Source: a virus (lineage: Duplodnaviria; Heunggongvirae; Uroviricota; Caudoviricetes). From it: a DNA stretch of 27,508 nt. Both the position numbers and the translations under genes were made by a program. The stretch's first letter is position 1. Every line of letters starts with the position of its first letter. The DNA lies in IMG/VR virus record IMGVR_UViG_2690316076_000006; one strand, written 5' to 3'. This document shows positions 3,099-23,339 of the stretch, piece by piece. The notes below the pieces were generated by a model that saw nothing but the letters and a program-made list of their open reading frames with translations, did not search any database and was not told the DNA's origin.

Positions 3099-3577
3099 TA
3101 TCCCGCCCCCGTCATACCCGTGAATTTAGTCGCCATACTGCCAGCCTTACCGATGAGCGATTCCGCCTGTTTACCGATATCGCCATAAAGCGCGGCCAGT
3201 GATTCATCAACGCGGGTGAGTGACAGCGTAAAATCAATTTTCCGGGGTGTGCCGTCTGCAAAGAAAATACTCCCTGTTTCACTCACCTTGCTGATGACAT
3301 ACATGCCGTAAATCATGCCGGTGCCATCCAGCAACGGCCACGCCCGGCCTTCCTCTGCCATCAGCCTGAGCGTGGTCATCGTCAGCTTGCCTCCGGTCAG
3401 TTCGGGATAAAGCACGCCGGCAAGCGTAATGTTTTCCTCACCCACACCGAGAAACTGAAAGGCATCCCGTTTACCGATACGGGAATTTGACGGCCAGCGA
3501 TAATCTGATTCACGCTGCATGGTCTGGTGTGGCAGCGTCTGGCGCATAAAAACAAACATACCTAACGCGAGCATCAT
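3098..3577 (-). CDS. U: Tail protein gpU, 159 aa
   Basis: Length and synteny match P2 gpU, immediately downstream of the tape measure gene. Confidence 0.9.
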   Translation of the reverse strand: MMLALGMFVFMRQTLPHQTMQRESDYRWPSNSRIGKRDAFQFLGVGEENITLAGVLYPELTGGKLTMTTLRLMAEEGRAWPLLDGTGMIYGMYVISKVSETGSIFFADGTPRKIDFTLSLTRVDESLAALYGDIGKQAESLIGKAGSMATKFTGMTGAG

Positions 3578-3591
3578 TTTTCGTCACCTCC

Positions 3592-6039
3592 TTAACCGTC
3601 ATGCATCATGCTGGCACGGGCGCGCGCACGTTTATCCCGCTCGTATTTTTCGAGCGCATCCTGTAACTGGCGGTCGAGCTGAGTCCCCGGCGCAGTACCG
3701 CCCGTCAGACTGATGTGATATTCGTTTTTACTCTGGTCCACATAAGAGCGGCCAGCCGGTGCCGTAACCGGCTGATAAGCCTGATAGCCTGCATAAGAGC
3801 TGGTCGCCGGAATATAACCACCGGTGCCATACGTGGCGGCATGAGTTCTGGCGGCGGTCTGGTCAAGTGTGTCTGACTCTTTGTTGATAACACCGAGTTT
3901 TTCCAGTACCCAGTCAATACCACTGCGCAGTTTGTTGAACGCATTAAGCGGCAGCATCAACGCGTCAGCCAGTGCCTGCCCGAACATGACGCCCGTGTCA
4001 CGGCAACGGTTCAGGGTGTCCTGGGTGGCTTTGACCGGGGCAATCAGGTTTTTAAACCACTGCCACGCGGCCTGTAACTTTTCACCCAGCCAGTCAAACA
4101 CCGGTTTAAGTGGCGTGAACAGTTCCCCCACCGGCGCAAATGCCGCTTTCAGCCCTTCAATCACACCGCCAAAAAATGCGCTGACAGGCTCCCAGTATTT
4201 ACGGATAAGTAACGCCCCGGCGACAATGGCGGCCACCACGGCCACAACCGGCCAGCTAATCGCTCCGATGGCGGTCATAACAGCACTGCCAACCGTCGTG
4301 AAGATTGCCCCCATTGCGCCTGCTGCCGCGATGATGGCATTGATGCCGGTGATAACCGGCCAGGCTACGAGGCCAATGGCACCGATGACACCAATCAGTG
4401 CCAGTGCACCACCGACAATAAGTCCGATGGTTGACGCCAGTGATTTGTTTTTCTGGATCCAGCCGTCGAGTTTTAACACATACTTTGTGGCCGTCTGCGT
4501 GAGCTTACGCAGTGCGCCTTCCTGCTGGTCAAACAGGTCAGTCCCCACCGCCTCATAAGCGGACTGAAACTCTTTAAAGTCACCGCCGAGGTTGTCCTGC
4601 ATGATATTTACCAGCTCGGCGGTCTTCCCGTCTGAGGCTTTAAACGCAGCGGTCAGTTTGTCCAGCTTTCCGGTTGAGGCGGCAGTCATCAGCACGGCGG
4701 CGGCTGAGCTGGCCTCCTCCCCGAAAATGGTTTTCATGTATTCAGCCTGCTGGGCAGTACCGAGCTGGTTTTTCTCAAAACTGGCCTGCATTTCTTTCAG
4801 AATGGTAAATACTGGTCGGGTATTCCCCTTACTGTCTGAGGTTTTTACGCCAAGCTCTTTGAGTGCATCCCATGCTTTTCCCGTTGGTGCCTGCAGGCGA
4901 CTTAACACGGCACGGCTTCCCGTCCCCGCCATTGAGCCTGTGATTTTTGCATCATGCAGCGCCCCGACCATTGCAGCGGTTTCTTCAATGCTGACACCGG
5001 CATTTTTTGCCACAGGTGCGGCATAGGTCAGCGCATCGCTCATGCCGTCAAAATCGGCGGCGGTTTTGTTCATCGTCATGGAGAGAACATCCCCGATATG
5101 AGCGATCTTATCGTTTGAAAGCTGAAAGGCGGATTTCATCCCCATCAACAGGGCGGCGTTTTCTTCCATCGTGCGACGGTTCGCCAGCGCCATATTCAGC
5201 GTGACCGGCGTTGCCGCCTGAATGGCATCAACATCCCCACCGGCTTTTGCAATAATAATCTGCGCACCGGCTGCATCATCTGCCGAGGCTGCGGTATTGT
5301 CGCCGAGCTGACGCGCCTGCTTGCGTAGTGCAGCCATTTCGGCGGAGTCTTTTGCCACACCGAGCACAGCCTGTAATTCTGAGTTTTTCTGCGCAAATTC
5401 ATAACCGGGCATCAGCAGCTTAACACCGGCCATCGTTCCCGCCGCCGCAATCCCCACACCGGCAGCGCCCACTGAGGCCATATTTCCGGCCAGCTCCTTT
5501 CCTGCCTGATAACGCTGTTTTACTGCGTTAAGTTTTGCCTGTTGCGCACTGACACGCGTCAGCGCGTCACGCTGCCGGTTAAGCTGTGCGGTGGTTTCAC
5601 TGATACGGTTTTTCAGCCCCTGCTCATCATGTGCAAGATTGCGGGTATTAATTCCCACAGCGGCCAGTTCCCGCTGCTGGCGTTTAACGGAATCCGTCAG
5701 GCGGTTATATTTCGCCTGTAAGTCCTCCGCCGCACGCTTTGCGGATTCCAGCACTTTCGCCTGAGCACGGGTCGGACGTTCAGTGTTTTTAAACTGTGTT
5801 GCAAGGGCTTCGGCCTCCTGCCGTGCCTTTTCAAGTGCATGACCAGTCACGGCAAGCTGTGCACTGGTCTTGCGGAATCCCTCAATACGGGATGCCTGCC
5901 CGTTCAGCTCGCGCAGTGATTTTTGTGTTTCCCGGATATCCCCCGACAGCGACTTACTCGCTGTGCGGATGGATTTAAACGGGCGGGATGCCTGGTCAAC
6001 AGCCCTGAGCAATACCTGTAATTTTACATTGTTACTCAT
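3592..6039 (-). CDS. T: Tail tape measure protein gpT, 815 aa
   Basis: 815 aa as in P2 gpT; Ala/Gly-rich, coiled-coil-rich N-terminal region with a hydrophobic central segment typical of tape measure proteins. Confidence 0.92.
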   Translation of the reverse strand: MSNNVKLQVLLRAVDQASRPFKSIRTASKSLSGDIRETQKSLRELNGQASRIEGFRKTSAQLAVTGHALEKARQEAEALATQFKNTERPTRAQAKVLESAKRAAEDLQAKYNRLTDSVKRQQRELAAVGINTRNLAHDEQGLKNRISETTAQLNRQRDALTRVSAQQAKLNAVKQRYQAGKELAGNMASVGAAGVGIAAAGTMAGVKLLMPGYEFAQKNSELQAVLGVAKDSAEMAALRKQARQLGDNTAASADDAAGAQIIIAKAGGDVDAIQAATPVTLNMALANRRTMEENAALLMGMKSAFQLSNDKIAHIGDVLSMTMNKTAADFDGMSDALTYAAPVAKNAGVSIEETAAMVGALHDAKITGSMAGTGSRAVLSRLQAPTGKAWDALKELGVKTSDSKGNTRPVFTILKEMQASFEKNQLGTAQQAEYMKTIFGEEASSAAAVLMTAASTGKLDKLTAAFKASDGKTAELVNIMQDNLGGDFKEFQSAYEAVGTDLFDQQEGALRKLTQTATKYVLKLDGWIQKNKSLASTIGLIVGGALALIGVIGAIGLVAWPVITGINAIIAAAGAMGAIFTTVGSAVMTAIGAISWPVVAVVAAIVAGALLIRKYWEPVSAFFGGVIEGLKAAFAPVGELFTPLKPVFDWLGEKLQAAWQWFKNLIAPVKATQDTLNRCRDTGVMFGQALADALMLPLNAFNKLRSGIDWVLEKLGVINKESDTLDQTAARTHAATYGTGGYIPATSSYAGYQAYQPVTAPAGRSYVDQSKNEYHISLTGGTAPGTQLDRQLQDALEKYERDKRARARASMMHDG

Positions 6040-6514: not shown

Positions 6515-7033
6515 TCACAGGCCGATATTGCGGCGGTGTTGCTCCAGTCGGTCGACGCCGTTCACCTTCTCAATCATGTTGATGGTGTCAATTTCGACCA
6601 GCTCCTTACCGTCCATCGTCAGCCGGAAATAGGTGCAGACCACGGAGATTTTCGACTCGGTGTCTTCTCCCTGTTTACCCTCGCCGGTGTCGATTTCTTT
6701 CTGACGTCCACGCATGACCACTTCAACGGCCACCGTTTCGCCGGTATCGTCACGCTGGTAAGAGCCTGCAAAACGAATCGGCACAGCATCCACACCGGTT
6801 GCGGCGTAAAGCTCCCAGATAACCGAATCAGGGAAACCACCGAGCGACCACTCCATTGACAGCGCATCGTCATCAAGGCCGAGGTCTACCGGTGCGCTGC
6901 CGTTCATCCCCGCACCGCGATAGTTTTCGAGTTTACGGGTCAGTTTTGGCAGCGTGACGGACTTTGCAACGCCCTGATAGCTGTAGCCGTTCAGAAAGAC
7001 GTTCATTAACTTGAGTTTGCGCGGCATTGCCAT
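6515..7033 (-). CDS. FII: Tail tube protein gpFII, 172 aa
   Basis: Length and synteny match P2 FII. Confidence 0.92.
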   Translation of the reverse strand: MAMPRKLKLMNVFLNGYSYQGVAKSVTLPKLTRKLENYRGAGMNGSAPVDLGLDDDALSMEWSLGGFPDSVIWELYAATGVDAVPIRFAGSYQRDDTGETVAVEVVMRGRQKEIDTGEGKQGEDTESKISVVCTYFRLTMDGKELVEIDTINMIEKVNGVDRLEQHRRNIGL

Positions 7034-7045
7034 CGGTCAGGCTCC

Positions 7046-8236
7046 TTAATTGCTGTTAACCGAGGTGACCAGATTTGCCAGGTATTTATCGGTAATACGC
7101 TGGCGCAGGGTCAGGTTTTCGAGAGGAGGCACCGGGGTATAGTCGTAGTCGATATACAGTTTTCCGGCCTTGAGGGTTTCCGCATCGTTGGATTCTTCGC
7201 TGAACCAGCAGGTCGCATCCACGATATAGCCGTTTGTTTTCAGCTCACGGAATTTGGCATTGATGCCGTCAACGATGTCGCGAATCAGCGTTGCGGTGAT
7301 GGGCTTGTCCACCGCCCACATGTGCGCCTCAGCCATCGTATCGGCCAGCACCTGCGCGGTGCGGGTGTAGTTTTCAAAGAGGAACAGCGGGTCATCAGAG
7401 CAGGTACGGTTACCCCAGAAGCGGAAACCATCACGGCGAATCAGCGTTGTGACACCTGACTCATTCAGCAGGTCAGCATCGGTGCCGGACTCCTGCAAAT
7501 CCCAGAATACAGAGGCACTGATGCCGGTAACACCGTTTACCCCGACATTGGACAGCGTTTTATGCCAGCCCTGCTCCTGGTCGATTTTAGCGCGCAGACC
7601 CAGCGCACGGGCGGTGGCATACGCGGTGGCGGTGGTGCTGCTGACCGTATCCCATGCGAGGAAATCCGGCCAGATGACCATCAGCTCACGCTGGCTGAAA
7701 TTCTGGCGGTAGGCTTTCACCTCGGAAATGGTTTTACAGCCCCATGCGCTGATATACCCGAAAGCGCGCAGCTTCTGACAGACTGATGCCAGTGCAACAG
7801 CCACCTCTTTGGTGTCCAGTCCCGGCACGCCGAGAATACGCGGTTTAACACCGGTTACCGACTCTGCCGCCAGCAGGGCTTTCAGTCCGGTATACTGACC
7901 GTTTTCGTCAGTGGTGCCGATGATATTGGAAACGGTCTGCGCGAGTTTCGTTTCTTCGTCGTCGCCGGTGCCGTCTTCAACACGCACGACAACGGTAACC
8001 GGTTTTGACTGGTCAGCGATGGCCTGCAACGATGCCGCCAGCGTGCCTTTTTTACCGGCCTTTGCAATTGCGCTCTGCACATTGGTAATCAGCACCGGTT
8101 TATTGAGGGGGAAGGTTTCCGCATCCGCATCGCTGGCCGTACAGACCATGCCGACAATGGCAGTGGATACGGTGGAAATGACGCGGGTGCCGTCGTTAAT
8201 CTCCAGCACCTGCACGCCGTGATGATAGTCACTCAT
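7046..8236 (-). CDS. FI: Contractile tail sheath protein gpFI, 396 aa
   Basis: Length and synteny match P2 FI. Confidence 0.92.
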   Translation of the reverse strand: MSDYHHGVQVLEINDGTRVISTVSTAIVGMVCTASDADAETFPLNKPVLITNVQSAIAKAGKKGTLAASLQAIADQSKPVTVVVRVEDGTGDDEETKLAQTVSNIIGTTDENGQYTGLKALLAAESVTGVKPRILGVPGLDTKEVAVALASVCQKLRAFGYISAWGCKTISEVKAYRQNFSQRELMVIWPDFLAWDTVSSTTATAYATARALGLRAKIDQEQGWHKTLSNVGVNGVTGISASVFWDLQESGTDADLLNESGVTTLIRRDGFRFWGNRTCSDDPLFLFENYTRTAQVLADTMAEAHMWAVDKPITATLIRDIVDGINAKFRELKTNGYIVDATCWFSEESNDAETLKAGKLYIDYDYTPVPPLENLTLRQRITDKYLANLVTSVNSN

Positions 8237-8295
8237 CCGTTTAACTCCGTGGTTAATGGGTGAGTGATATTTTCAGTTGTGCCGGAGATGTCAGG

Positions 8296-8889
8296 CTATT
8301 TGTCCCGGTTGGCTAAGGGATGACACAATTTGTTCTTTGTCGCTGATGAGGGGAATTTTTTATAGAGCGTGGACAGGCCAATATCAAAAATCAGCGCCAC
8401 GCGTTGACGTGATTCACCCGCAGCCAGCAACCGTCCTGCCTGTTCCCACTCACTCGCGGTGAGCTTCGGACGTCTGCCACCAATACGACCTTTGGCTCTG
8501 GCCGCTTCCAGTCCGGCGCGAGTCCGCTCAACAATGAGTTCTCGCTCCATTTCAGCCAGGGCACCCATCACATGAAAGAAAAAACGCCCCATCGGCGTGC
8601 TGGTATCAATGGCATCCGTCAGGCTGCGAAAATTAATGCCGCGTTCGCGCAGCTCCTCAACCAGAATGACCAGATGCCGCATACTACGCCCCAGCCGGTC
8701 CAGCTTCCAGACTACCAGTGTATCCCCCTCCGATAATGTCCTGAGCAGTTTTTTCAGCCCCGGCCTGTCGGACTTCGTGCCGCTGATTTTATCCTCAAAA
8801 ATCAGCTCACATCCTGCGCACTCCAGCGCGTTACGCTGCAATTCCGTGTTCTGGTCATTTGTTGACACGCGTACATAGCCAATAAGCAT
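8296..8889 (-). CDS. Serine-recombinase DNA invertase (Gin/Pin/Cin/Hin family), about 197 aa
   Basis: Translation MLIGYVRVSTNDQNTELQRNALECAGCE...GDTLVVWKLDRLGRSMRHL...PMGRFFFHVMGALAEMERELIVERT closely resembles Gin/Pin, with the catalytic serine in the YVRVS motif; start taken at the second ATG (8889), which has AGGGG 6 nt upstream. Confidence 0.9.
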   Translation of the reverse strand: MLIGYVRVSTNDQNTELQRNALECAGCELIFEDKISGTKSDRPGLKKLLRTLSEGDTLVVWKLDRLGRSMRHLVILVEELRERGINFRSLTDAIDTSTPMGRFFFHVMGALAEMERELIVERTRAGLEAARAKGRIGGRRPKLTASEWEQAGRLLAAGESRQRVALIFDIGLSTLYKKFPSSATKNKLCHPLANRDK

Positions 8890-8944
8890 GAGCATCCCCC
8901 TGAATAAAAACCGGAGATGATGCCAGTTGCCCGTTATCTCTGCA

Positions 8945-8970
8945 TTTTCATAAACGTTGGTTTGGGGGAA
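8945..8970. repeat. Invertase crossover site, left (gix/pix-like 26 bp): ttttcataaacgttggtttgggggaa
   Basis: 21 of 26 positions identical to the reverse complement of the site at 10751-10776; resembles gix/hix sites; next to the invertase gene and encoding the GLGE motif of the tail fibre. Confidence 0.7.
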
Positions 8971-9306
8971 TTGGCTCTGGCTGGCGCAACAACCGGCGCT
9001 ATGTTGGTGAATGGGTATGTAGCAATTCCATTAATTATTTCTGGCGTTCGGAGACCACTTATTATCCAGTGGGGAGTGGGGCAGTTTGGGGGAAGTCTGG
9101 GGGATGATGCGGGATATTTAAACAATTTCCCTTTCGCTTTTCCGTCGGCGTGCTACGTGATGGTTGCCAGCCACGTGGGGCATACACCTTCGGGTGCCGG
9201 AATACTATCTGCTTCCGCAATCACAAAAAGCGGCTTTCGTGGTTTTTCCAGCGTAGTGACTGCCGCAAATCCTGTATCGGGCTGTTATGTTGCTATAGGA
9301 GGGTGA
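8947..9306 (+). CDS. Alternative (currently silent) tail-fibre C-terminal variable cassette Hv'
   Basis: Open frame runs through the crossover site (FINVGLGELALAGATTGAM...) to a stop at 9306; it shares the GLGE junction motif with H and would be fused to the constant part of H after inversion. The track ORF extends to an upstream ATG at 8917. Confidence 0.6.
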   Translation, partial: FINVGLGELALAGATTGAMLVNGYVAIPLIISGVRRPLIIQWGVGQFGGSLGDDAGYLNNFPFAFPSACYVMVASHVGHTPSGAGILSASAITKSGFRGFSSVVTAANPVSGCYVAIGG

Positions 9307-9307
9307 T

Positions 9308-9742
9308 GTGTTTTTTAGTCCATCTTTAAATATTTTTGTGAATCCTGCGCTTAAGGATGACTACATCAATGTAAATTCATGGCCAGATGATGCTGTTGAA
9401 GTTGATGAGCAGGTGTATATTGAGTTTTCCGGATTACCGCCGAAAGGAAAAATCCGTATCGCTGGGGAAAATGGTTTTCCTGCATGGTCTGAAATTCCAC
9501 CACCAACGCATGAGGAACAGATTGCCGCAGCCGAATTGAAAAAACAGCAATTGATTAATCAGTCCAACGAATATATGAATACCAAGCAATGGCCTGGTAA
9601 AGCGGCTATTGGTCGTCTGAAAGGTGAGGAACTGGCGCAATATAATTTGTGGCTGGATTATCTGGACGCACTGGAACTGGTTGATACCTCCAGTGCTCCA
9701 GATATTGAATGGCCTACGCCTCCGGCAGTTCAGGCCAGATGA
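9308..9742 (+). CDS. Tail fibre assembly chaperone, alternative cassette (Tfa'), 144 aa
   Basis: C-terminal DIEWPTPPA motif typical of tail fibre assembly proteins (P2 gpG / Mu U family); follows Hv'; convergent with, and overlapping, the other tfa gene. Confidence 0.8.
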   Translation: MFFSPSLNIFVNPALKDDYINVNSWPDDAVEVDEQVYIEFSGLPPKGKIRIAGENGFPAWSEIPPPTHEEQIAAAELKKQQLINQSNEYMNTKQWPGKAAIGRLKGEELAQYNLWLDYLDALELVDTSSAPDIEWPTPPAVQAR

Positions 9743-10307
9743 CATCCGGCGCGGTGCTCGTATCTGTTGCCGTCACCGCGTCAATGTAATCAAGCACGGC
9801 GTTAAGCCGGGTGGTTTCTGCCTGCGTCAGCTTCCGCCCGGCCTGTAATTTCAGCTGAATCAGACTGATGGAAGCCATTGCAGCATCAATCAGTGACTGG
9901 CGCTGTGCTTCTGCCGCTTCTACTGCGGCACCGTGTTGTGCCTCAGTATCTGTCACCCATTTCTCACCATCCCATTTATCATATGGCGTTAACGGTGAAA
10001 GCGTGACATAACCGTTTTTGATGGCACCGATATAATCCACTGTAACAGCAGCACCATTTTCGATTGAGTAAACAGTCTCATTGCGATGGTCTTCTTCATG
10101 GCTCCATCCCTTACCTGTAAATACTGCCACTTTTCCCGGAATGTTTTCGCCCGGGTCAATACCAGTGGAACAGGCGGGCATACTTACACCAGTATTAATA
10201 TATTCATCAGACCAGCCCGTATATTCATACGTTACTGCATCATAATAAAAACAACGCATATCACCCGGCACTGTAGCCAGTCCATTTTCATCAAAAACAG
10301 GTTTCAT
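9714..10307 (-). CDS. G: Tail fibre assembly chaperone (gpG-like), active cassette, 197 aa
   Basis: C-terminal APDVIWPELPEA motif; immediately downstream of H on the minus strand. Confidence 0.85.
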   Translation of the reverse strand: MKPVFDENGLATVPGDMRCFYYDAVTYEYTGWSDEYINTGVSMPACSTGIDPGENIPGKVAVFTGKGWSHEEDHRNETVYSIENGAAVTVDYIGAIKNGYVTLSPLTPYDKWDGEKWVTDTEAQHGAAVEAAEAQRQSLIDAAMASISLIQLKLQAGRKLTQAETTRLNAVLDYIDAVTATDTSTAPDVIWPELPEA

Positions 10308-11590
10308 TATTTAGCCCTCACCAGAAAGTTAAATGCAATGTTACGTGGTCTGACGGCAATAAAATTAACACCATCTCCTACTGAGTTACTGGTGTACTGA
10401 AATCGAGAGAAACCTGGTTGGTGTGCTGATATTCCATCGTAATCAGCAATCGCATGGCCGGACCCTTCTGGATAATTACCGCCAAATTGCGATAAAGCTG
10501 TTGCTGCCTGCCAGCTTAATAATGCTCGCCCACTGTCCGCCCCTCGCCCATCATCCCAGATACGAATGAAATCACCGCGGGCTTCAGGTAATACCAGCGA
10601 AGGAAACACTTTTGCCAGCACAGGGTAATCAGAGGCAGAAAATTTCGCCCCGTTGAACTTCAAAAACACCATACTGGACCAGCTATCGATTACAGTATTT
10701 GGCATTGCAGCGGACGGCCAGAAGAACGGAACGCCAATAGCTGGAGCACCTTCTCCCAAACCAAGGTATGTGAGAAGACCAGCTACATCCTTTCCACTCA
10801 AATGAGTCAGCGTATTGTCCAGCGGTTGTTTACCTGCCAGCGCATTGTTAATGGTGGTACTGAATTTCGGGTCATTGTTGATAGCTGCGGCAATTTCTTT
10901 CAGTGTGTCCAGCGTGTCAGGGGCACCGTTAATCAGAGCGGTAATAGCGGCCTGTACAAACGCAGTGGTCGCAATCCGCGTGGTGTTATTTCCTGCGGCA
11001 GGCGTCGGCGCTTTTGGTTCTCCGGTAAATGTCGGATTATGTTTCTGTGCATACTGGGTATGAGGATCCTGTGCGGCAATGTGGTTTCTCATCTGGTCAT
11101 CCACATACAGCTTTAATTCCAGGACTTTATCATCCACGTATTTACGGGTCGCCAGTACCACCGACGGGTCGATTTTCAGCGTGATGGCTTCGGTATTCGT
11201 GACAACCAGAATCATGCGGATAGTCTGGGTACGACCACTGCCTTCCTGCAACTGCGGTTTGTACGTTTCCGGGCAGTTCGCCACCGCAATGAGTACGCCT
11301 TCATCATCATAAAGCCCAATCTCACGGATCCAGAATCCTCCCTCGTTCTCAGGGATGATTTGCTCCGCAATAATCTGGCTCTGGTTGTTCGGGTCAACAC
11401 TCAGAAGATTCAGCGGCGCGATGCGTTTCTGGTTAATCAGTTTTGTCTGTGCCGGGTCTGGTGTCGGCAAGACACCATTCGCATCACCAACGGCCATTTG
11501 CGTCAGATTCAGCTTACTGCCGAGCATCGTCGCGTTAGCCAGCCGTGCTGCGCCCTGATTAGTCAGAATGGCGTAGTATTTCACTGTCAT
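10307..11590 (-). CDS. H: Tail fibre protein gpH (constant N-terminal part plus currently expressed variable C-terminus), 427 aa
   Basis: N-terminus resembles P2 gpH (MAVGD...GGFW.RE.GLYDD.G.LIAVAN...YKP...EGSG); position between I and the tfa gene; the C-terminal ~150 aa lie inside the invertible segment. Confidence 0.88.
   Translation of the reverse strand: MTVKYYAILTNQGAARLANATMLGSKLNLTQMAVGDANGVLPTPDPAQTKLINQKRIAPLNLLSVDPNNQSQIIAEQIIPENEGGFWIREIGLYDDEGVLIAVANCPETYKPQLQEGSGRTQTIRMILVVTNTEAITLKIDPSVVLATRKYVDDKVLELKLYVDDQMRNHIAAQDPHTQYAQKHNPTFTGEPKAPTPAAGNNTTRIATTAFVQAAITALINGAPDTLDTLKEIAAAINNDPKFSTTINNALAGKQPLDNTLTHLSGKDVAGLLTYLGLGEGAPAIGVPFFWPSAAMPNTVIDSWSSMVFLKFNGAKFSASDYPVLAKVFPSLVLPEARGDFIRIWDDGRGADSGRALLSWQAATALSQFGGNYPEGSGHAIADYDGISAHQPGFSRFQYTSNSVGDGVNFIAVRPRNIAFNFLVRAK
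10751..10776. repeat. Invertase crossover site, right (inside gene H): ttctcccaaaccaaggtatgtgagaa
   Basis: Inverted copy of the 8945-8970 site (21/26 identical, identical central TT); encodes LTYLGLGEGAP in H, which marks the constant/variable junction. Confidence 0.7.
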
Positions 11591-12198
11591 GCGTTTACTC
11601 TCATGTTATCAATTAAATGAATGGCCGAGGCCGGGAAATAATCCCCTCCGACAATAATGGCCTCCGGGGTGTAGGGATAAACCGTCAGGGCGTCGCCGTG
11701 ATAGCATCCCGCACCGGCAAAAATGTTGCCGGTTGTACTTAAACTGATAGCCAGTCCCGTCAGATGGCGGCTTGCAGGTTTTGCATCAGCAACGAGACGC
11801 TCCAGCTCCTGATACATTTCCTCGGTAATACCCTGCTCAAGCACGCCAACAACGATGCGGAACGTCCCCGGCTCCTCGTTGAGCTGCCACCACTCCCTCA
11901 CCTCAATCAGATAGCCGAGCGGCTCCACCACACGGCGAATCGCACCAATAGTGCCCTTATGGCAGTGAATGAAATACGCATCGCGGATAACAGCGCGTTT
12001 TGTCGCTTCCGGCCACTTATCATCCCAGCGGTCAACCGAAAATGACCACGCCAGCCACGGCAGCAGATTTGCCGGACAGGTATCCGGGTTCCACAGCTCA
12101 CGAATACTGACCGGCGTTTTTTCAATTTCCGCACAGGCTCTTGCGGCGGCGACTTCAAGCGGTGATGAGCCGGTCGGCAGCAGGCGCGAATCACTCAT
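11587..12198 (-). CDS. I: Baseplate protein gpI, 203 aa
   Basis: Synteny (between J and H) and sequence recall of the P2 gpI N-terminus (MSDSRLLPTGSSPLEVAAA...). Confidence 0.85.
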   Translation of the reverse strand: MSDSRLLPTGSSPLEVAAARACAEIEKTPVSIRELWNPDTCPANLLPWLAWSFSVDRWDDKWPEATKRAVIRDAYFIHCHKGTIGAIRRVVEPLGYLIEVREWWQLNEEPGTFRIVVGVLEQGITEEMYQELERLVADAKPASRHLTGLAISLSTTGNIFAGAGCYHGDALTVYPYTPEAIIVGGDYFPASAIHLIDNMRVNA

Positions 12199-13099
12199 CC
12201 GAGCCTCCGGTCACGACGCTGTATTCGGTGCAGAAAGACGCCTGCGTACTGTTGAGCACAATGTCAGCCAGAGGTGCAGTCAGTTCGACACGTTGCACGC
12301 CTTCCACATGCAAAGCGGCATAAATGGCAGACAGACGGATGTCGCGCCCAAGCCGGTGCTGTGCCGTGATGTACGCTTCCAGTTTTTTCACGGCAGCAGC
12401 GCGGATGGGTTCGCTTTCGGGACCTGGGTAAAGGTAAAGCGTGGCGTTTATCTGATATTCAACAATGGCGGCAGACTGCACGGTCACGCGGTCGGCCACC
12501 GGCCTGACGTCCTCGCCATTAAGGGCGTTACGCACCACGGCCAGCAGGTCTTCGGATGCGACGCCGTTATTTTCACGTGACAGCACGGAGATAGTGACGC
12601 AGGCCGGAGACGGACTGGTGACAGAGATATCCGCGACACGCCCGTCGGCACTGCGACCATGATACTGATAGGCTCCCACAGACCCGGCGACGCTTAAGCC
12701 CTCAAACGCCTGCTGAATACGCAGACGATAATCGGTGTCAGACTCCATCACTGCCGGTGTCGGCGGGATGGTCGAATCATCTGCCGGGGTGATAATCAGG
12801 CGCGTGGTGTTGTAATTGGCACCAATCACATCAAGGTCATTACCGGCGGCACAGGCCAGCATCACCGCCCGTGCGGCCTCATTCACACGCTGACGCCAGA
12901 TAAGCTCACGATAAGCGTTTTCCTCCAGCAGTTTGACGAGAGGCTCGGATTCCAGCGTCAGGGTACGGGCGACCGCCTCCTGCTGGTCTTCCGGGTAAAG
13001 GGAAATCAGTGTCGCCTTGCGTTCGGCAAGAATGGTTTCAAAGTCCAGCTCCTCGACCACATCCGGTGCGGGTAGCTGGTTCAGGTCGATAATCGGCAT
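12191..13099 (-). CDS. J: Baseplate assembly protein gpJ, 302 aa
   Basis: Length and synteny match P2 gpJ. Confidence 0.92.
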   Translation of the reverse strand: MPIIDLNQLPAPDVVEELDFETILAERKATLISLYPEDQQEAVARTLTLESEPLVKLLEENAYRELIWRQRVNEAARAVMLACAAGNDLDVIGANYNTTRLIITPADDSTIPPTPAVMESDTDYRLRIQQAFEGLSVAGSVGAYQYHGRSADGRVADISVTSPSPACVTISVLSRENNGVASEDLLAVVRNALNGEDVRPVADRVTVQSAAIVEYQINATLYLYPGPESEPIRAAAVKKLEAYITAQHRLGRDIRLSAIYAALHVEGVQRVELTAPLADIVLNSTQASFCTEYSVVTGGSDE

Positions 13100-13451: not shown

Positions 13452-14083
13452 AAAGGACTCCCGGTTGTACCGCCGCTGTCGCCGGGGTGTTTGTGGGTAT
13501 GCAGTACCTTACCGTTTGATGAGAGTTCACCGCCGGTGTGTTCAATGTTGCCGCGCATCGTCCCGCCCTTCTGCACTTCCAGCGTGCCGGTAGTCAGTTT
13601 GTTAGTGCAGACCACTTCCGGTGTGTCCAGGGTGACACGGGTTGACGCTTTCACCGTGACCATCGGCACCGTGGCAGTAACAGAATCAGAAGCCGTCACG
13701 CTGGCCGTTTTAATTCCGCTTACCGTGAGTGCACTGGTTTCGGGTTCATACTCAATCACCGCCCCGTCAGGGAAACGGATATGCAGGGCATCCGCCGACG
13801 CAGACGGCGCGGGGTTATCGCCGGAATAAATCCCCGGCAGAACAAACGCCGTGTCAAGTTCACCGCCCACGGCCAGAATCAGCACCTGCTCCCCCACGGA
13901 AGGTGCCCACCATGTGCGCGAACGCCCGGCACGACAGGTCAGCCACTGAAGCCAGTCGGTGCACATGCCGCCGGTCTGCACACGGCAGCGACCGGCTTTA
14001 AGGTTGGTTTCGACGACAAGGCCGGTGCGAATCATGTTGCGCAGTGCGCGCGCGAGTTCCTGGATATTTGCGAGAGTGTTCAT
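13448..14083 (-). CDS. V: Baseplate spike/hub protein gpV, 211 aa
   Basis: Length and synteny match P2 gpV. Confidence 0.92.
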   Translation of the reverse strand: MNTLANIQELARALRNMIRTGLVVETNLKAGRCRVQTGGMCTDWLQWLTCRAGRSRTWWAPSVGEQVLILAVGGELDTAFVLPGIYSGDNPAPSASADALHIRFPDGAVIEYEPETSALTVSGIKTASVTASDSVTATVPMVTVKASTRVTLDTPEVVCTNKLTTGTLEVQKGGTMRGNIEHTGGELSSNGKVLHTHKHPGDSGGTTGSPL

Positions 14084-14149
14084 AACGGGAAGGATGCCGC
14101 CGGGTCATACCGGCGGCAATGTGACGATGAGGTGTCGGGAATGGCACAA

Positions 14150-14569
14150 CTAACGGTCGAGGTGAGCCAGAATAATCTCTTCAATCATCTGCACATCCTC
14201 ACCGGTAAAGCCGAGCAGAGGACGCGCCGGATAATCAATTTTCTTACCGTCTTTCCGGTTTTCTTCCGACAGACCGAACTGATGCACACTGGCGATTTTC
14301 GGTGACTTCCCGCCGTAAAATTCCATTGCTGCCTGTTCCGGGCTGGCGCGGATATGCAAAAAACGACTGGTGATAAGTTTCGCAAACATTTTTCGCTTAA
14401 CACGACCGGTCTTTTTTCTGGCGCTCTGCTGCTGGCGTGGCGCATAGGGTGTGCCGTCCGGGGCTTTCTGTGCCATCACCCGGCGCTGCTGACTCTGCCG
14501 CAGACGTTTCGCCAGTTCTGCACTCAGTCGCCGACGCCCTGACGGTGACAGCGACTCAATCAGTCCGGT
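14150..14569 (-). pseudogene. S: Tail completion/virion morphogenesis gene S, 5'-truncated at an internal deletion junction
   Basis: C-terminal ~135 aa (…QKAPDGTPYAPRQQQSARKKTGRVKRKMFAKLITSRFLHIRASPEQ…ILAHLDR) match the P2 gpS family; the N-terminus is replaced by out-of-frame N-derived sequence; the track ORF starts at TTG; the only in-frame ATG is at 14476. Confidence 0.7.
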
Positions 14570-14822
14570 CACCGGCGGTGTCGGTGGTGCTGGCGATGGA
14601 GCCGGTGACACCAATACCAATTTTTTCCCCTTTCATTTCGCTGACCGGCACAATGTTGATGCGGGTCAGAAAGTCAGAGGACTCCTGCATGGTGTTCATC
14701 AGGGTCTGGGTGACCGACGGTTCAACGGTGAATTTTTTCGACACATCACCGGCGTCGATGCCGTTCAGTTCGGCAACACGGGACAGGTAGGCATTAAATT
14801 TAAAGCGGGTTTCCTGGCGCAT
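14556..14822 (-). pseudogene. N: Major capsid protein gene N, truncated after about 84 codons (88-aa remnant)
   Basis: MRQETRFKFNAYLSRVAELNGIDAGDVSKKFTVEPSVTQTLMNTMQESSDFLTRINIVPVSEMKGEKIGIGVTGSIASTTDTAG matches the P2 gpN N-terminus as I recall it, then runs into 4 unrelated codons and a stop; full gpN is about 357 aa. Confidence 0.8.
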
Positions 14823-14880
14823 AGTTTTTCCTGAAATTAAGGGTTAATCGTGAAGGTTTTCCCGGACTGACTGACGCCGG

Positions 14881-15735
14881 TCAGCAGTTCGTCATCAGGG
14901 CGTCACCGCCACCGCCGGTGGCTTTGCTGCGGCGCTGCTGGGTCAGACTTTCGGTGTGGTCGAGACTGTTTTTCAGGCGGGTGAATGCCTGACTAGTTTC
15001 ATCCGCCCTGTCAGTCACATCCTGCTTAAGTGCCGAAAAGGCGGTTTCCATCTCAGCAAGGCGCTGCTCAGTGGCGCTCAGTTTTTCCTGCACATGCTCA
15101 GCGACAGCGGTCACCGCTTCATGCACGTCATTCAGACGGGCGTCATCGCTGGCCTGTTTGCGGCCAAAAATGGATTTCACCTTTTCGGTCAGGGCGGTGA
15201 ACACGGTTTCAGGCAGGTCTTCAAATTCCAGCTCAACAGGCGTTGCCACTGAAATCAGGTTTTCAGGGCTTAATTTGAAGCGGTTCAGAGGGTTGTGTTT
15301 TGCCGTGCGGCAGAATTCCAGGTATTCCGTGCCGAGGCTTGCCGGGTCATCGGTGACGGCCAGACCCACCAGATAACATTTGCCTGTATTGGCAAAGTTC
15401 GGCTGAATTTCCATTGAGGTATAGACCTTCTGCGCGGCCTTGTTCATCGCGATAAGGTCATCGGTCGGGGTGATTTTCGCAAACAGCGCCCATTTGCCTT
15501 TCAGCGCCGAATCATCGTCAATCTTTTCGGCCTTCAGTTCGGCCACATCGCCATAACGTTTAAAAATACCGTCAGGCAGGATGCCGCGCAGATGTTCCAG
15601 GTTAATGCGGCAACCATAGACACGCGGGTCAAAGGTTTCGGCCATTTCCTGAATATCCTGCGCACTGATGACACGCCCGTCACAGGTGTCACCCTCAACG
15701 CCGATACGAAAGAATTTTGAGACTTTTTTTGCCAT
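14881..15735 (-). CDS. O: Capsid scaffolding protein gpO, 284 aa
   Basis: Translation from the internal Met (MAKKVSKFFRIGVEGDTCDGR...) matches P2 gpO; the track ORF is N-terminally over-extended. Confidence 0.9.
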   Translation of the reverse strand: MAKKVSKFFRIGVEGDTCDGRVISAQDIQEMAETFDPRVYGCRINLEHLRGILPDGIFKRYGDVAELKAEKIDDDSALKGKWALFAKITPTDDLIAMNKAAQKVYTSMEIQPNFANTGKCYLVGLAVTDDPASLGTEYLEFCRTAKHNPLNRFKLSPENLISVATPVELEFEDLPETVFTALTEKVKSIFGRKQASDDARLNDVHEAVTAVAEHVQEKLSATEQRLAEMETAFSALKQDVTDRADETSQAFTRLKNSLDHTESLTQQRRSKATGGGGDALMTNC

Positions 15736-18902: not shown

Positions 18903-19352
18903 CGCCCGCTTCGTGGGGCTGTTTTAATGCAGTTGCATGAACACTCCAAGAGCACGCCAGCACTGGCGGCGCTCACACGTAACGGGGAAGGAAAACGCAT
19001 GCGATTCGATGCAGTACTGCATGCGGAGCTGAAAAAGGCAGAAAATACTGAAAAAACGCATAAAAAACCGGCATTCAGGTCACCGGTTTGAGTCAGCTTC
19101 ATTGTGGTTACTTGTCGCGCAATGCGCCAATAATACTAGTAAGGCAACAAGTGGCAACAATCAGCAAAAAAACCGTTGTCCACGGATTCTCATAAACGAG
19201 AGATAACATATTGATATTGATCCTTTTATTGGTACATTATAATGCGACATTATCGGTCTTTAACAACCTGGCTGAGTTCTATCTTACCAATTTTCGTGAT
19301 AAGCATTTAATCAATTACGTAGTATGGTTAAAGGCACACAAAGGAGAAAAAT

Positions 19353-19403
19353 ATGCGAATGCATTTTTTAGACAACCGACTTCCAAAAATCTTTTCAACG
19401 TAA
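19353..19403 (+). CDS. 16-codon mini-ORF (MRMHFLDNRLPKIFST) with a consensus Shine-Dalgarno, upstream of the cargo gene
   Basis: AAGGAG at 19341-19346, 6 nt before the ATG; lies in the AT-rich leader about 110 bp downstream of a -10-like TATAAT (19238-19243). Function unknown; could be a leader peptide or spurious. Confidence 0.3.
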   Translation: MRMHFLDNRLPKIFST

Positions 19404-19609
19404 TACAGAAAATCACAAACATCTATCAATTACAAATTAACAAACATCAACGCTACCAGCTTAATTGCAGCAAAGATCAGGAGATAACATCACTACAACA
19501 ATAAATCAAAAACTGTTAGATTTGGCCAGAAATGCCAACTCCACACATAACTTCACGCAGATACATAGTTCATAATTAAACAATTTATCGACTTGGAGCG
19601 AATAGAATA

Positions 19610-20614
19610 ATGTCAAAAGAAAACACACCAATGGAACCAAGCATAAATATAAAGGCAGACTTCACTGAGATATTAAATTCATCGCCAAAGGGCGTTAAGT
19701 ATATATTCAATATTCTCTTCGGAAAAAAACACGCAGAGGCCGAGAGAAGGATTAGGCTATCGAACGCTCAAGATTATGCAGATATGAAAAAAATCATATC
19801 TGGAGAAGCAACATATGATAATGAGAAGAACCAAATAACACCTTCTAACCAAGACATTAAGTCATTAATTGTTAGCGCATTGCAGGATGAGGAAATTACA
19901 AATCTTATAGGCTGCATCAGAAGCGCCTCAGAATACATTAAAGATGATACTGATAACGATGGTGGTCCATCCCAAGACTTTATTAACAGATGGCGAAGCG
20001 ATGCGAAACTAATCAGTGAACAGTCTATCCAGTACGTTTGGGGGCGAATTCTAGCGGAAGAAATAAACACACCTCAAACTGTAAGCGTAAGAACCCTTGA
20101 TGTAATAAAAAACCTATCAAAAGAAGAGGCTGAATATTTCTCAGAGGCACTTGACTTTATATTTTACGATTCTTATTTGATTGATAATGGAGATACCAAA
20201 AATCCATTCATCTCACCAGGAAAAGGTCATAAATTGAGAGATGCAGGATTAATAGTTACTTTTACTCCTGGAATGTATCGCTCCGGGACATGGGATACAC
20301 AACGTTTTGTTCTCAGCGGAGCCACCATACCAAAAGTATTCTACATCAGCAGTTCTGATAAGTATTACTTTATCGATGCAGGCAAAATAACTGACGACCC
20401 TAAAATTCTGGTATGGGAGTTAACAAATGCCGGCAAAGAATTATATGAAATTCTAAAGAAAGATCATAAAACCAAAGAAGAATCAGTAAAAAAAATTATT
20501 GACTGGATATTAAATAGCACTAAAGCTTCTGAGTTTTACTATGGAGATATTGTTAAGCATTCAGACAATAGCCTGTCAGTTGAGAACTTACTGACTATAA
20601 GCAGAAATAGATAG
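19610..20614 (+). CDS. Hypothetical protein, 334 aa, low-GC cargo gene at the P2 cos-A (old/tin) variable locus; candidate phage-defence/exclusion protein of unrecognised family
   Basis: Long ORF with GGAG 11 nt upstream; markedly AT-rich codon usage relative to the rest of the prophage; occupies the position of P2 orf91/tin/old; no P-loop or other motif I can recognise by eye. Confidence 0.8.
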   Translation: MSKENTPMEPSINIKADFTEILNSSPKGVKYIFNILFGKKHAEAERRIRLSNAQDYADMKKIISGEATYDNEKNQITPSNQDIKSLIVSALQDEEITNLIGCIRSASEYIKDDTDNDGGPSQDFINRWRSDAKLISEQSIQYVWGRILAEEINTPQTVSVRTLDVIKNLSKEEAEYFSEALDFIFYDSYLIDNGDTKNPFISPGKGHKLRDAGLIVTFTPGMYRSGTWDTQRFVLSGATIPKVFYISSSDKYYFIDAGKITDDPKILVWELTNAGKELYEILKKDHKTKEESVKKIIDWILNSTKASEFYYGDIVKHSDNSLSVENLLTISRNR

Positions 20615-21053
20615 AACATCAAAACAAGACCCCATATCTAATCAGTATACGAACAGGCAAGAACATCCGTTTTTGTCTGTTCCTTTCAAAACAACTACCC
20701 GCATTTCCATAATACTAAAAGATATTTTTCCCTTTATTCAAACCCACAATAATGTTTACGCTCAATAATAAAAAACATCAGAATATTTTTTAACTCCTAC
20801 ACAGCTTGTTTCTCAATCCCGTTGTGTATATCATCAGGACCAAGACATTTCACACCAGTGTTATCCATCACTTGTTCAGAAATCATCGCTACTTTTATGA
20901 CAGAGTAGTGACTCTATATACTAAGAATTACGACCATCCTTATTATCCTGACTTTCATCAATAAAGAAAATAATACCGCCAGCTTTATCTCTTGGTGAAT
21001 AAGGAGGGCCAGCGCTAACCAGATAACTGCCTATATGAATTAACTTGTTGTCA

Positions 21054-23339
21054 TTAGCTCCACTCCATTTCTGTTGAATACCCCGGCCACTCATCAGCGA
21101 CCGGATACGTGAATGTTTTCCCGTCATAATTTACGGTCGCGCCACGCGCCAGCGCCTCAAGCTCCCATCGCTGCGGCCTGATACCGTTCTGAGCAAGGTC
21201 AACGCGGACACGGGTAATTTGCATTCTTTCCGACCGGGTCAGTCTGGCCGATGGTGCAATTTCATGTGGTTTTAACGGGCTTCCGTTTCTCTGCTGACGA
21301 TTTGGTGTTCTCAGCCCGTATTTTAATGCGCCCCTGAGCGCCCTCACGACCTCCGGGTCATTCCATTCGATAACACCGTCATCTACCAGATTAAGCACTG
21401 CTGCGGCGTGCTCAGAAGGTGTGGGAGCCGGTAACGAAGTATCGCCACAGGTGAGCTTTCCACAGTTATTGACAGGACTCCGAGGCGCGGCGATGCCGCT
21501 TTTTAAAGTCAAAGGCTCAACGACCGGAACTTTCGGCACAATGCGCCAGTCCGTCGTTCTGGTGATATGAATATGACGCGCGCCGAGATGCGGCGCGTAA
21601 ATGCCGACCACTCTCTCGACTTCTTCCTCGTACTCGTTAACGTCATCCGACAGACTACGGGCGACCCTGACAGTCTGACAATCGCGCGGGACATTTGCCC
21701 CGCCCTGCGCGCTGATATACAGCGCAAAATCACCACTGTCTGCGGCGGCGCGTGCAGCCTCGACGCGCTCGTCAAACTCATCAGCAATGCTGACGCCGCG
21801 AGGCAATTTGCGTAGTTCACGGTAAGCCCCCATTGTCGGCAGGCCAACCGTTTTAAATTGCGGAATGCGCCACGTTGACGCCCATGCGGTAACAGCCGCT
21901 GCAGTGTCTTTCAGCGGCCTGCCGGTGTCGTTATCGAGCTGACCATCCAGTGCATAGCCGTCGATGTTTTTTGAAATGTATTTCGCGATATATCCCGCAG
22001 CACCGCCCCGGTTAAGGTGTTTTGCCTGAAAACGGTTTCGCGCGGCTCCTCTTTCGTCGCCATCCTCTTTGAGCGCATAGCGACGCATGATTTCGATAAT
22101 CTGGTTACGCTGGCGTGGATGACAAAAAAGCATCATATGCCAGTGCGGCGTTCCGTCGTGGTGTGGCTCGACGACTCGCAAACCGTAGACCTGTAAATCA
22201 TTATCCTTGAATGCCGTGCGCATCAGGCTCCAGATACGGCAGAGATAACGCTGCGCATCCTTTGGATTAAATGCCTCATCGTTCCAGCCGTGATTAAGCT
22301 GAACGGTTTTACTTTCGCCTTTTCCGACCTGACGTGTCGGGTGATACTTTGACGGCGCGGTCAGCGTGATAAACATCCCCACATCACCCTCTGCGGCGGC
22401 GTAACGCTCAATACCGGCAATGGTGTTCATCAGCTCCATCCGGCGAATTTCAGGATTAGAAATACTGCCCATCACCTTACTGATAAGGTCGATGCGCTCG
22501 CCGGTTTCCCTGTTTTCAAGGTCACACGATTTAAGAAATTCCAGATTTGCCTGGCGGCGCGCACGCACATCACGAATGGCGTGTTTACTGGCATAAGGAG
22601 AACGGTCTTTATTGACCTCCCCGACAGCTATCAGTAACGCCTCATGCCAGCGCATACGCTGGCCTTTAAGCTGATGAGTCCACCACTCATCGTTAAACAG
22701 GCGGGCAATGGCAGAATATGCCTGCCTCGTGGTCATCTGTCCTTTACGGTATTTTTTCCAGTAGAGCGGGGAAATATTGAAAGCACGTGCAGCGCCAGCA
22801 ACATGACCATACAGGTGAGCCTGCGCCTCATCCGTAAACAGCGATTCTTTTTCACCATGCGCATCAACCCATGCATCGCAGAGTTCCTCATACATCATGA
22901 AAAGCTGCGATGAGATACGGGCGGCAAACTTTTTCAGCTCCTTGTCATTCATTCCCGGCAGGCGCGCATAGTGGTCACGCTCTGCCAGAAACAACAACGA
23001 CGCGTCGGTGTTCATTTCATGGCGCTGATTCACACGCTCAATGCGCGGCCATAAACGACGCTGAAAAGTGGATGTGAGGAAATAAAACCCGTGCACCGGG
23101 CTTTTATTGCGCCGGATGTATTCATAGCGTGAAGTAAACAGCGAGCGCAAAAAGTAAGGCAGGCGGTTAATCGTGGATAAAACACCTTGCACCTGACGCA
23201 TCTCGTCACGTGTAAGGGGTCTTTCGCGCCCGACGGCCTCGCGTGGCGCGTTCCATGCATAAGCACCGGTAAACGTCTTACCGGTGCCTGCGGCAAATGC
23301 TGACGGAGGGACAAAATGCCCGGAGGCTTTAACGGCCAT
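21054..23339 (-). CDS. A: Replication initiation protein gpA (rolling-circle nickase), 761 aa
   Basis: Translation from the internal Met (MAVKASGHFVPPSAFAAGTGK...) matches P2 gpA across its length. Confidence 0.93.
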   Translation of the reverse strand: MAVKASGHFVPPSAFAAGTGKTFTGAYAWNAPREAVGRERPLTRDEMRQVQGVLSTINRLPYFLRSLFTSRYEYIRRNKSPVHGFYFLTSTFQRRLWPRIERVNQRHEMNTDASLLFLAERDHYARLPGMNDKELKKFAARISSQLFMMYEELCDAWVDAHGEKESLFTDEAQAHLYGHVAGAARAFNISPLYWKKYRKGQMTTRQAYSAIARLFNDEWWTHQLKGQRMRWHEALLIAVGEVNKDRSPYASKHAIRDVRARRQANLEFLKSCDLENRETGERIDLISKVMGSISNPEIRRMELMNTIAGIERYAAAEGDVGMFITLTAPSKYHPTRQVGKGESKTVQLNHGWNDEAFNPKDAQRYLCRIWSLMRTAFKDNDLQVYGLRVVEPHHDGTPHWHMMLFCHPRQRNQIIEIMRRYALKEDGDERGAARNRFQAKHLNRGGAAGYIAKYISKNIDGYALDGQLDNDTGRPLKDTAAAVTAWASTWRIPQFKTVGLPTMGAYRELRKLPRGVSIADEFDERVEAARAAADSGDFALYISAQGGANVPRDCQTVRVARSLSDDVNEYEEEVERVVGIYAPHLGARHIHITRTTDWRIVPKVPVVEPLTLKSGIAAPRSPVNNCGKLTCGDTSLPAPTPSEHAAAVLNLVDDGVIEWNDPEVVRALRGALKYGLRTPNRQQRNGSPLKPHEIAPSARLTRSERMQITRVRVDLAQNGIRPQRWELEALARGATVNYDGKTFTYPVADEWPGYSTEMEWS

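Follow-up and report, generated by a model that had tools for sequence, protein, structure and literature searches.

The window, by which we mean the whole 27,508-nucleotide stretch of DNA analysed here, very probably carries a Pin-type invertible tail-fibre switch of the Fis/enhancer class, located in a P2-like prophage integrated beside yegQ. The preliminary description had proposed a Gin/Pin-type switch with gix-like sites; the assignment to the Pin type holds, but the closest relative is the P segment of the e14 element and not the Gin system. A switch of this kind is already known and well described, and it brings no new biology. It is nevertheless a clean, checkable case of textbook phase variation in a very common family of Escherichia coli prophages. 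The features on which this reading is based are collected in Table 1.

Table 1. Elements of the invertible tail-fibre locus and its P2-derived flank (positions in the window)
Feature	Position	Strand	Evidence
Late promoter region pF of P2, with the stretch that P2 annotation gives as activator-binding site	8237..8316	-	aligned to P2 17530-17665; P2 annotation of activator-binding and transcription start sites
Serine DNA invertase, Pin/Gin type	8296..8895	-	Pfam Resolvase E=3e-52, HTH_7 E=1e-12
Candidate recombinational enhancer, 5' end of the invertase gene	8805..8868	-	two Fis-like 15-mers
Invertase-proximal crossover site	8945..8970		TTTTCATAAACG-TT-GGTTTGGGGGAA, core 8957-8958
Silent alternative tail-fibre C-terminus, 115 aa, StfP-like	8959..9306	+	Pfam Gp53-like_C E=2e-12
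Silent tail-fibre assembly chaperone Tfa', 144 aa	9308..9742	+	Pfam Caudo_TAP E=3e-35
Chaperone G, expressed position, 197 aa, TfaE-like	9714..10307	-	Pfam Caudo_TAP E=2e-27
H variable C-terminus, expressed position, 151 aa, StfE-like	10307..10762	-	e14 StfE 40% identity
Distal crossover site, within gene H	10751..10776		TTCTCCCAAACC-AA-GGTATGTGAGAA, core 10763-10764
H constant N-terminal part, outside the invertible segment	10777..11590	-	Pfam Phage_tail_fib N-terminal domain E=6e-63

A serine invertase had been placed next to a segment of about 1.8 kb, and the gene is indeed present as an intact, full-length ORF. Its translation likely starts at the ATG at 8889 (MLIGYVRVS...), 56 bp from the proximal crossover site, to give a protein of 197 aa. 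The protein retains its catalytic Ser, in YVRVS, as well as the DRLGR motif, and it has the organization of Din-class recombinases, with an N-terminal catalytic domain containing the nucleophilic Ser and a C-terminal helix-turn-helix. A structural search recovers Gin (3UJ3) at E=1e-94, and the protein shares 158 of 181 residues (87%) with e14 PinE and 145 of 181 (80%) with Mu Gin, while its counterparts in many intact prophages are 97-100% identical to it. At the positions corresponding to Gin H106 and M114, where Fis-independent mutations map, the invertase has the wild-type Gin residues.

The two 26-bp inverted sites reported earlier were recovered by recomputation. The proximal site and the reverse complement of the distal one agree at 21 of 26 bases, and the pair is the best-ranked inverted repeat in a scan of 7000-12500. 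When the whole window was searched with the consensus of Din (Hin/Gin/Cin/Pin) crossover sites, TTNTCNNAAACCWWGGTTTNNGANAA, allowing up to three mismatches, these two sites were the only matches, with two mismatches for the proximal and one for the distal site; 100 dinucleotide shuffles of the window gave none. The same scan of the window found no third crossover site of the kind present in the four-variant system of enteropathogenic E. coli (EPEC). Each site consists of 12-bp imperfect inverted half-sites around a 2-bp core. The central dinucleotides read TT and AA on the + strand: both cores are the same asymmetric dinucleotide, in inverted orientation. The proximal site departs from the consensus at two positions of its reverse complement, 12 (G) and 15 (C); e14 and most relatives show both departures, and the site as a whole matches the pin-proximal site of e14 at 25 of 26 positions. 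Of 72 related loci that were scanned, nearly all carry a site at 80-81 nt before the start codon of the invertase. Related P2-like loci also have an inverted distal site of the same type 1.6-2.6 kb upstream of the invertase, and the complete architecture of proximal site and inverted distal site is found in 52 of the 72.

The organization of the segment is that of an invertible fibre cassette, in which the fibre gene contains the distal site and the C-terminus is exchanged in frame together with its cognate Tfa chaperone. As the preliminary description had noted, both crossover sites encode a GLGE motif, and we find that ..GLGE is read in the same frame from each of them. Inverting the segment in silico converts the 427-aa H into an H' of 391 aa, in frame and with no frameshift, thereby exchanging 151 aa for 115 aa and swapping the chaperone as well; this bears out the predicted replacement of about 150 aa of H. 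The alternative cassette is also where it had been proposed. Its fibre part appears as an orphan ORF (8917-9306, + strand), 39% identical to e14 StfP, and is followed by Tfa', which begins at a GTG preceded by AGGAGG and is 58% identical to TfaP. Tfa' and G are convergent genes that overlap by 29 nt, and G is 63% identical to TfaE. A Caudo_TAP gene accompanies the fibre part in each cassette, and e14 has homologues of both cassettes.

The two C-termini of H are unrelated in sequence and match different domains. The one in the expressed position weakly resembles the Collar domain and the region of T4 gp37/gp12, at scores under the Pfam cut-off, with a weak match in the PDB to T4 gp37/short fibre (E=0.002). 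The silent one gives weak matches to the foot of R-type pyocin fibres, 6CXB/6CL5 (R1 pyocin fibre, E=0.03). The comparison with known receptor-binding domains called for earlier therefore yields weak structural matches, from which no receptor can be assigned.

By analogy with Hin and Gin, invertase dimers would bind both 26-bp sites and assemble with a Fis-bound enhancer located in the 5' end of their own gene. Cleavage at the central AA/TT dinucleotide, followed by rotation, would then invert the stretch from 8958 to 10763. Because the distal site lies inside H and the ..GLGE.. frame is the same at both sites, each flip would change the partner joined to the constant 276-aa N-terminal part of H. 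In the state found in the window, this part is joined to the StfE-like C-terminus, followed by the TfaE-like chaperone; in the other state, it would be joined to the gp53-like C-terminus, followed by the TfaP-like chaperone. With two joined states, a population of lysogens would therefore yield particles of two receptor specificities.

Both orientations of the segment occur among near-identical prophages. A 3501-nt sequence inverted in silico is found in one piece in four complete chromosomes of enterotoxigenic E. coli (ETEC), with 100% coverage and 99.5% identity, whereas the best match of the region in its present orientation is 96.4% identical. Of the complete E. coli genomes that cover at least 80% of the query, 25 have the present orientation and 27 the inverted one, a ratio of about 1:1. 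In ETEC1730, where the locus is 99.5% identical, the flank is collinear with the window and the segment is inverted. The single base that distinguishes the inner half-sites has travelled with the segment and the outer half-sites have stayed put, as a central crossover predicts. This places the breakpoints within the 26-bp sites, after the last diagnostic base of the outer half and before the first one of the inner half. The prophages of E. coli W and B-766 show no differences over 6.2 kb after the segment is re-inverted. We considered whether W and 'B-766'/'DH5alpha CP026085' represent one strain in two states, and rejected this idea given that the outer flanks differ at 35 positions and that the CP026085 assembly contains indels; they are near-identical prophages only, and our claim stops short of a single clone. 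Taken together, this comparative evidence from other genomes points to inversion of the segment by crossover at the centre of the sites.

It could be argued that the opposite orientations found elsewhere result from RecA-dependent homologous recombination between the repeats, or from assembly errors, and not from the invertase. Differences in orientation among assemblies cannot by themselves name the enzyme, and some draft contigs around this locus (L011 and L015) look chimeric. Perfect runs of about 10 nt are too short to serve as a RecA substrate, and this is the longest run shared by the arms, which agree at just 21 of 26 bases. The position of the breakpoints inside the sites and the even split of orientations across finished genomes also argue against this idea. 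Finally, at P2-like loci of this kind, both orientations have been shown experimentally to coexist in clonal cultures (PMC4272514). We thus consider recombination by RecA or misassembly as extremely improbable and favour site-specific inversion by the invertase.

In Din systems, the recombinational enhancer lies early in the invertase gene, at about 100 bp from the proximal site, and comprises two Fis sites with a spacing of some 48 bp. In the window, two Fis-like 15-mers are found at nt 22-36 (8854-8868) and nt 71-85 (8805-8819) of the gene, at distances of approximately 97 and 146 bp from the middle of the proximal site. The second of them (nt 71-85) conforms to the consensus GNNYRNNWNNYRNNC, as do its counterparts in pinE and gin, but the upstream one fits poorly. 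As the strict consensus thus accounted for only one of the two expected sites, we turned to conservation at synonymous positions. Across 61 unique genes for related invertases, the third base of the codon hardly varies in codons 9-13 and 25-31 but does so between these stretches, which defines two islands of synonymous constraint 48-50 nt apart, where the Fis sites of an enhancer would be expected. The islands are visible at single-codon resolution, whereas a 10-codon entropy profile displays only a broad gradient. For Hin, the enhancer has been located within the invertase gene (PMC3798978). From the homology of position and the conservation, the 8805-8868 region is a candidate enhancer, and the switch may depend on Fis; inversion in Din systems requires host Fis and DNA supercoiling.

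The surrounding prophage is of the P2 type. Its late genes are syntenic with those of P2 (ogr, D, U, T, E, FII, FI ... H, I, J, W, V), it carries pF, Pfam matches support FI, H and I, and the window is collinear with the annotated P2-like prophage of ETEC1730. The region 8200-8316 is 98% identical to P2 by BLAST, and P2 homology resumes within the end of the invertase ORF, over its last seven or so codons and stop codon (8296-8316). The activator-binding region of the pF/F operon overlaps this end of the ORF. A scan of the region for promoters and terminators gave results no better than shuffled sequences.

The prophage has suffered a 4.6-kb deletion, which leaves 83 codons of the truncated capsid gene N and takes away M, L, X, the holin and lysin genes, lysB/C, R and the 5' part of S. 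The deletion is private to this prophage: its junction was found in none of 5426 complete E. coli genomes, in no GTDB representative genome and in no IMG/VR sequence. The prophage therefore no longer has all the genes essential for morphogenesis and lysis, and this copy alone cannot make a virion with either fibre. As capsid, lysis and tail-completion genes are lost, any effect on host range is latent in this copy. The preliminary description was right to invoke a known class of host-range mechanisms, but switching cannot alter the host range of phages issued from this copy alone.

This deletion, together with the single orientation visible in the window, raises the question of whether the switch is frozen, i.e. 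a relic with an ancestral repeat and invertase whose segment no longer flips, or flips without consequence here. We regard this as unlikely. The invertase is full length, has kept its catalytic motifs and remains nearly or fully identical to those of many intact prophages, and both sites have kept consensus half-sites and matching cores. Moreover, measurable flipping occurs in the P segment of e14 (PMC4272514), even though this element is itself defective. A functional switch that would also be active in this strain is thus a better description of the locus.

Alternatively, the invertase might mainly serve targets in trans, namely the switch sites of other prophages or inversions of the chromosome between prophages, which would explain its retention in a defective prophage. 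Din invertases cross-complement, and 3786 of 5426 E. coli genomes contain matches to parts of the 3.5-kb query, at a median of two places per genome. In two contigs, L015 and L033, a segment is bordered at either end by an invertase-proximal flank; these odd contigs may, however, be assembly artefacts. The window needs no such explanation, as its local sites make up a complete, canonical pair. A main role in trans therefore seems quite unlikely to us. That the invertase has been kept for this purpose, flipping the fibre segments of other prophages or inverting large chromosomal segments between prophages, appears very unlikely; if it were true, transcription of the invertase gene into the pF/F operon would be a side effect. 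We thus retain a switch acting in cis on its own segment.

This reading has practical consequences for annotation. At this locus, orphan ORFs described as 'gp53-like domain-containing protein' and pseudogenes described as 'partial phage tail protein' should be annotated as the halves of one switchable gene and not as signs of decay. In addition, assemblies of such loci may freeze, or chimerise, a population of mixed orientation.

The nearest known system is the P segment of e14 in E. coli K-12, with its invertase gene pinE and the stfE-tfaE and stfP(ycfK)-tfaP cassettes; it is nearer than Gin. Goldberg et al. (2014, PMC4272514) measured inversion-driven phase variation in e14 as well as in P2-like EPEC prophages. 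Like the window, e14 presents the constant fibre part, a site, the StfE/TfaE-like cassette, then the TfaP/StfP-like cassette, a site and the invertase. It also shares convergent tfa genes with an identical 29-nt overlap, a proximal site upstream of the invertase start codon (by 80-81 nt) and its defective state. The cassette proteins of the two are 39-63% identical, with diverged N-terminal parts. The window differs by its P2-like, myovirus backbone (H, I, J, FI), e14 being lambdoid, by the outer half of the distal site (TTCTCACATACC versus CTCTCGAAAACC) and by an invertase C-terminal tail 15 aa longer, the end of which derives from P2 pF DNA.

The Mu G segment with Gin belongs to the same mechanistic class, with two 26-bp inverted sites, a 2-bp core and a Fis-consensus 15-mer at nt 71-85 of gin as in the invertase gene of the window. 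Its inversion likewise exchanges the fibre C-terminus and chaperone (S/U versus S'/U', as annotated in NC_000929). However, the Mu segment is 3 kb long, its gix half-sites have a different sequence, its core is GA/TC instead of AA/TT, and the cassette proteins are unrelated save for the Tfa fold. In the literature, the P1 C segment with Cin is grouped with the Mu system.

P2 itself (NC_001895) shares the late-gene backbone and syntenic tail genes, and its pF and the start of FI are 98% identical to those of the window. Its order is H-G-terminator-fun(Z)-pF-FI, without an invertase or second cassette, in agreement with the earlier statement that the switch is absent from P2 and takes the Z/fun position. 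Invertases have been reported in this hotspot (Egorov et al. 2024, bioRxiv 10.1101/2024.10.15.618418), and P2-like prophages commonly carry one there, as has already been published. The locus in the window shares its location between G and FI, its gene order and its annotation with other P2-like invertible loci, such as those of EPEC E2348/69 and of Peduovirus records including KC618326 and pro483. The EPEC E2348/69 locus has three sites and four variants as opposed to the two-site window. The window stands apart from these loci by its pair of cassettes and by the 4.6-kb deletion elsewhere in the prophage.

The longest inverted repeat in 7000-12500 is the pair 8945-8970/10751-10776 (I1), lying beside a serine recombinase gene and within the tail-fibre gene H, respectively. 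The first site matches the reverse complement of the second at 21 of 26 positions, as the preliminary description had claimed. Scanning the whole window with the crossover-site consensus TTNTCNNAAACCWWGGTTTNNGANAA, with up to three mismatches allowed, returned exactly these two sites, and no match was found in 100 dinucleotide-preserving shuffles. Their plus-strand central dinucleotides are TT and AA, so that the asymmetric cores are identical and inverted, a geometry for inversion, not deletion. Both sites encode a ..GLGE.. motif in the same frame, again as described. Inverting 8958-10763 in silico creates an uninterrupted H' of 391 aa, in which the last 151 aa of H give way to 115 aa from an orphan ORF, and the 197-aa downstream chaperone G is replaced by the 144-aa Tfa'; the proposed swap of about 150 aa of H together with its chaperone was therefore reproduced.

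Features around the invertible segment
Feature	Coordinates	Strand	Remarks
FI sheath	7046-8236	minus	
Serine recombinase	8296-8895	minus	199-aa ORF
Orphan ORF	8917-9306	plus	Gp53-like_C domain
Tail-fibre assembly gene (Tfa')	9308-9742	plus	Caudo_TAP
G, tail-fibre assembly gene	9714-10307	minus	
H, tail fibre	10307-11590	minus	427 aa
I	11587-12198	minus	

The recombinase harbours Resolvase and HTH_7 domains, its YVRVS serine and DRLGR motif are intact, and Gin crystal structures align with it end to end (3UJ3, E=1e-94), in keeping with the invertase assignment made earlier. Its ORF exceeds PinE, the invertase of the e14 prophage, by 15 aa, and the start is probably the ATG at 8889 (MLIGY...). 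That the enzyme might act in trans is improbable; nothing requires such a role. It is possible but unlikely that the switch is a frozen relic that no longer flips, since both enzyme and sites are intact. A weak terminator-like hairpin (8909-8928, minus), followed by TTTTTATT, is found between the proximal site (8945-8970) and the invertase start and faces the direction of H-G operon read-through. It may have arisen by chance, because such hits are in no excess here (7 versus 3.9 +/- 2.2 in shuffles).

To look for the other state, we searched other genomes with a 3501-nt query (8200-11700) carrying the segment inverted in silico. Four complete ETEC chromosomes matched its full length (100%) in one piece, with 99.5% identity; the best match of the window's own orientation reached 96.4%. 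Relative to the near-identical P2-like prophage of ETEC1730, the flanks are collinear and the middle is inverted, with breakpoints inside both 26-bp sites. The single base that differs between the inner half-sites (G versus A) has travelled with the segment, and the four that distinguish the outer half-sites have not moved, the pattern predicted by crossover at the site centre. RecA-mediated inversion between the arms is very unlikely, as their longest perfect run is only about 10 nt. A sister prophage occurs in opposite states in E. coli W and strain B-766, with 0 differences over 6.2 kb once the segment is re-inverted. Among complete E. coli genomes with at least 80% query coverage, 25 have the present orientation and 27 the inverted one. 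Among 72 related loci taken from IMG/VR and from reference records, a proximal site with an AA core is paired with an inverted distal site with a TT core, 1.6-2.6 kb upstream, in 52; most of the others are truncated by contig ends. Coexisting orientations have been measured in clonal cultures for e14 and two P2-like EPEC prophages, one EPEC P2-like prophage being a three-site, four-variant version (PMC4272514). Every detail of the original observation was confirmed, and its reading as an inversion switch is supported.

Some records depart from this arrangement. The draft contig IMGVR_UViG_2693429599_000001 (L011), whose invertase is 100% identical to that of the window, contains both junction types at once, in the order rc(window 10361-8957), window 10751-11303, rc(window 9384-4800). 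Its two crossover sites are thus in direct orientation, and the simplest explanation is a chimeric assembly of a culture with both orientations. Direct-oriented pairs are also present in loci L043 and L051. In contigs L015 (376-1699 versus 3420-4743) and L033 (1207-1699), the invertase-proximal flank, comprising the FI 5' end, invertase and site, is found on both sides of the segment. The second invertase copy of L033 is only 84% identical, so a simple duplication artefact does not account for it. Recombination by the invertase across two different prophages could explain these loci, as could misassembly. RefSeq gives the pieces of the switchable fibre gene one of two labels according to the assembled orientation: pseudogenes marked 'incomplete; partial in the middle of a contig', or a stand-alone 'gp53-like domain-containing protein' (E. 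coli W, L003, 5141-6424; L006; L002, 14754-15215). This labelling is an artefact that the switch causes in annotation and does not reflect decay of the gene.

The P2 reference has the order H, G, terminator, fun(Z) on the opposite strand, pF activator-binding site and FI, and no invertase. P2 homology restarts at ~8316 (98% identity over 8200-8316), within the invertase ORF's 3' tail. The last ~7 codons and stop of that ORF (..PLANRDK-stop, 8296-8316 minus) coincide with the stretch annotated in P2 as pF activator-binding. The module hence occupies the Z/fun hotspot, which bears out its proposed location and absence from P2. Invertase and F operon are co-oriented, 59 bp apart, and KC618326 and E. 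coli W share the invertase/pF join. This is probably the point at which recombination joined the module to the backbone, and read-through into FI could occur across it. An invertase at this position is not unusual: many Peduovirus records have one annotated there, and DNA invertases often occur in the hotspot with adjacent genes inverted (Egorov et al. 2024, bioRxiv 10.1101/2024.10.15.618418). The switch belongs to a well-known family, and its position is already in the literature.

The P2-like prophage adjoins chromosomal yegQ, with its late genes encoded by the minus strand. It lacks 4.6 kb present in the ETEC1730 prophage: capsid gene N ends after 83 codons, fused out of frame to S (..TTDTAG/DRTD-stop), and M, L, X, holin, endolysin, lysB/lysC, R and the start of S are absent. 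The junction (~14570-14575, region 14083-14900) shares a 6-nt overlap and was not found in 5426 complete E. coli genomes, GTDB representative genomes or IMG/VR, so that it either is restricted to the source strain or arose in assembly. Unless the latter holds, the prophage looks defective; it would yield no particles, and the switch would be mechanistically complete and phenotypically latent. Cargo absent from ETEC1730 occupies 18940-21082, at the P2 old/tin hotspot position, flanked by genes Q (portal) and A (replication). The product of its ORF 19610-20614 (+), 334 aa long, has a DUF2806 domain (E=7e-19) and may serve an accessory or defence function of the hotspot.

In Hin, the enhancer contains two Fis sites and is located ~100 bp from one hix site (PMC3798978). 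Across 61 unique related invertase genes, the third positions of codons 9-13 and of codons 25-31 form two near-invariant islands, and those in between vary freely. With a spacing of 48-50 nt, these islands correspond to window ~8805-8868, roughly 97-146 bp from the proximal site centre. The window's invertase gene, pinE and gin each have, at nt 71-85, a 15-mer that conforms to the Fis core consensus. Together, the 15-mer and the synonymous constraint favour a putative enhancer, which would be embedded in the 5' part of the invertase gene.

As for named systems, of the Gin/Pin-type affiliation first proposed the Pin part stood, while Mu G is not the closest: the invertase is identical to PinE at 158 of 181 positions and to Mu Gin at 145 of 181. 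The distance of 80-81 nt from proximal site to start codon is common to the window, e14, Mu and nearly all related loci. The nearest relative is the P segment of e14. The proximal site matches the e14 pin-proximal site at 25 of 26 positions, and, if the deletion is real, a complete but latent switch would be a further likeness. Homologues of the expressed cassette are StfE/TfaE (40% and 63% identity), those of the silent one StfP/TfaP (39% and 58%), and the tfa genes are convergent in both systems, with an identical 29-nt overlap.
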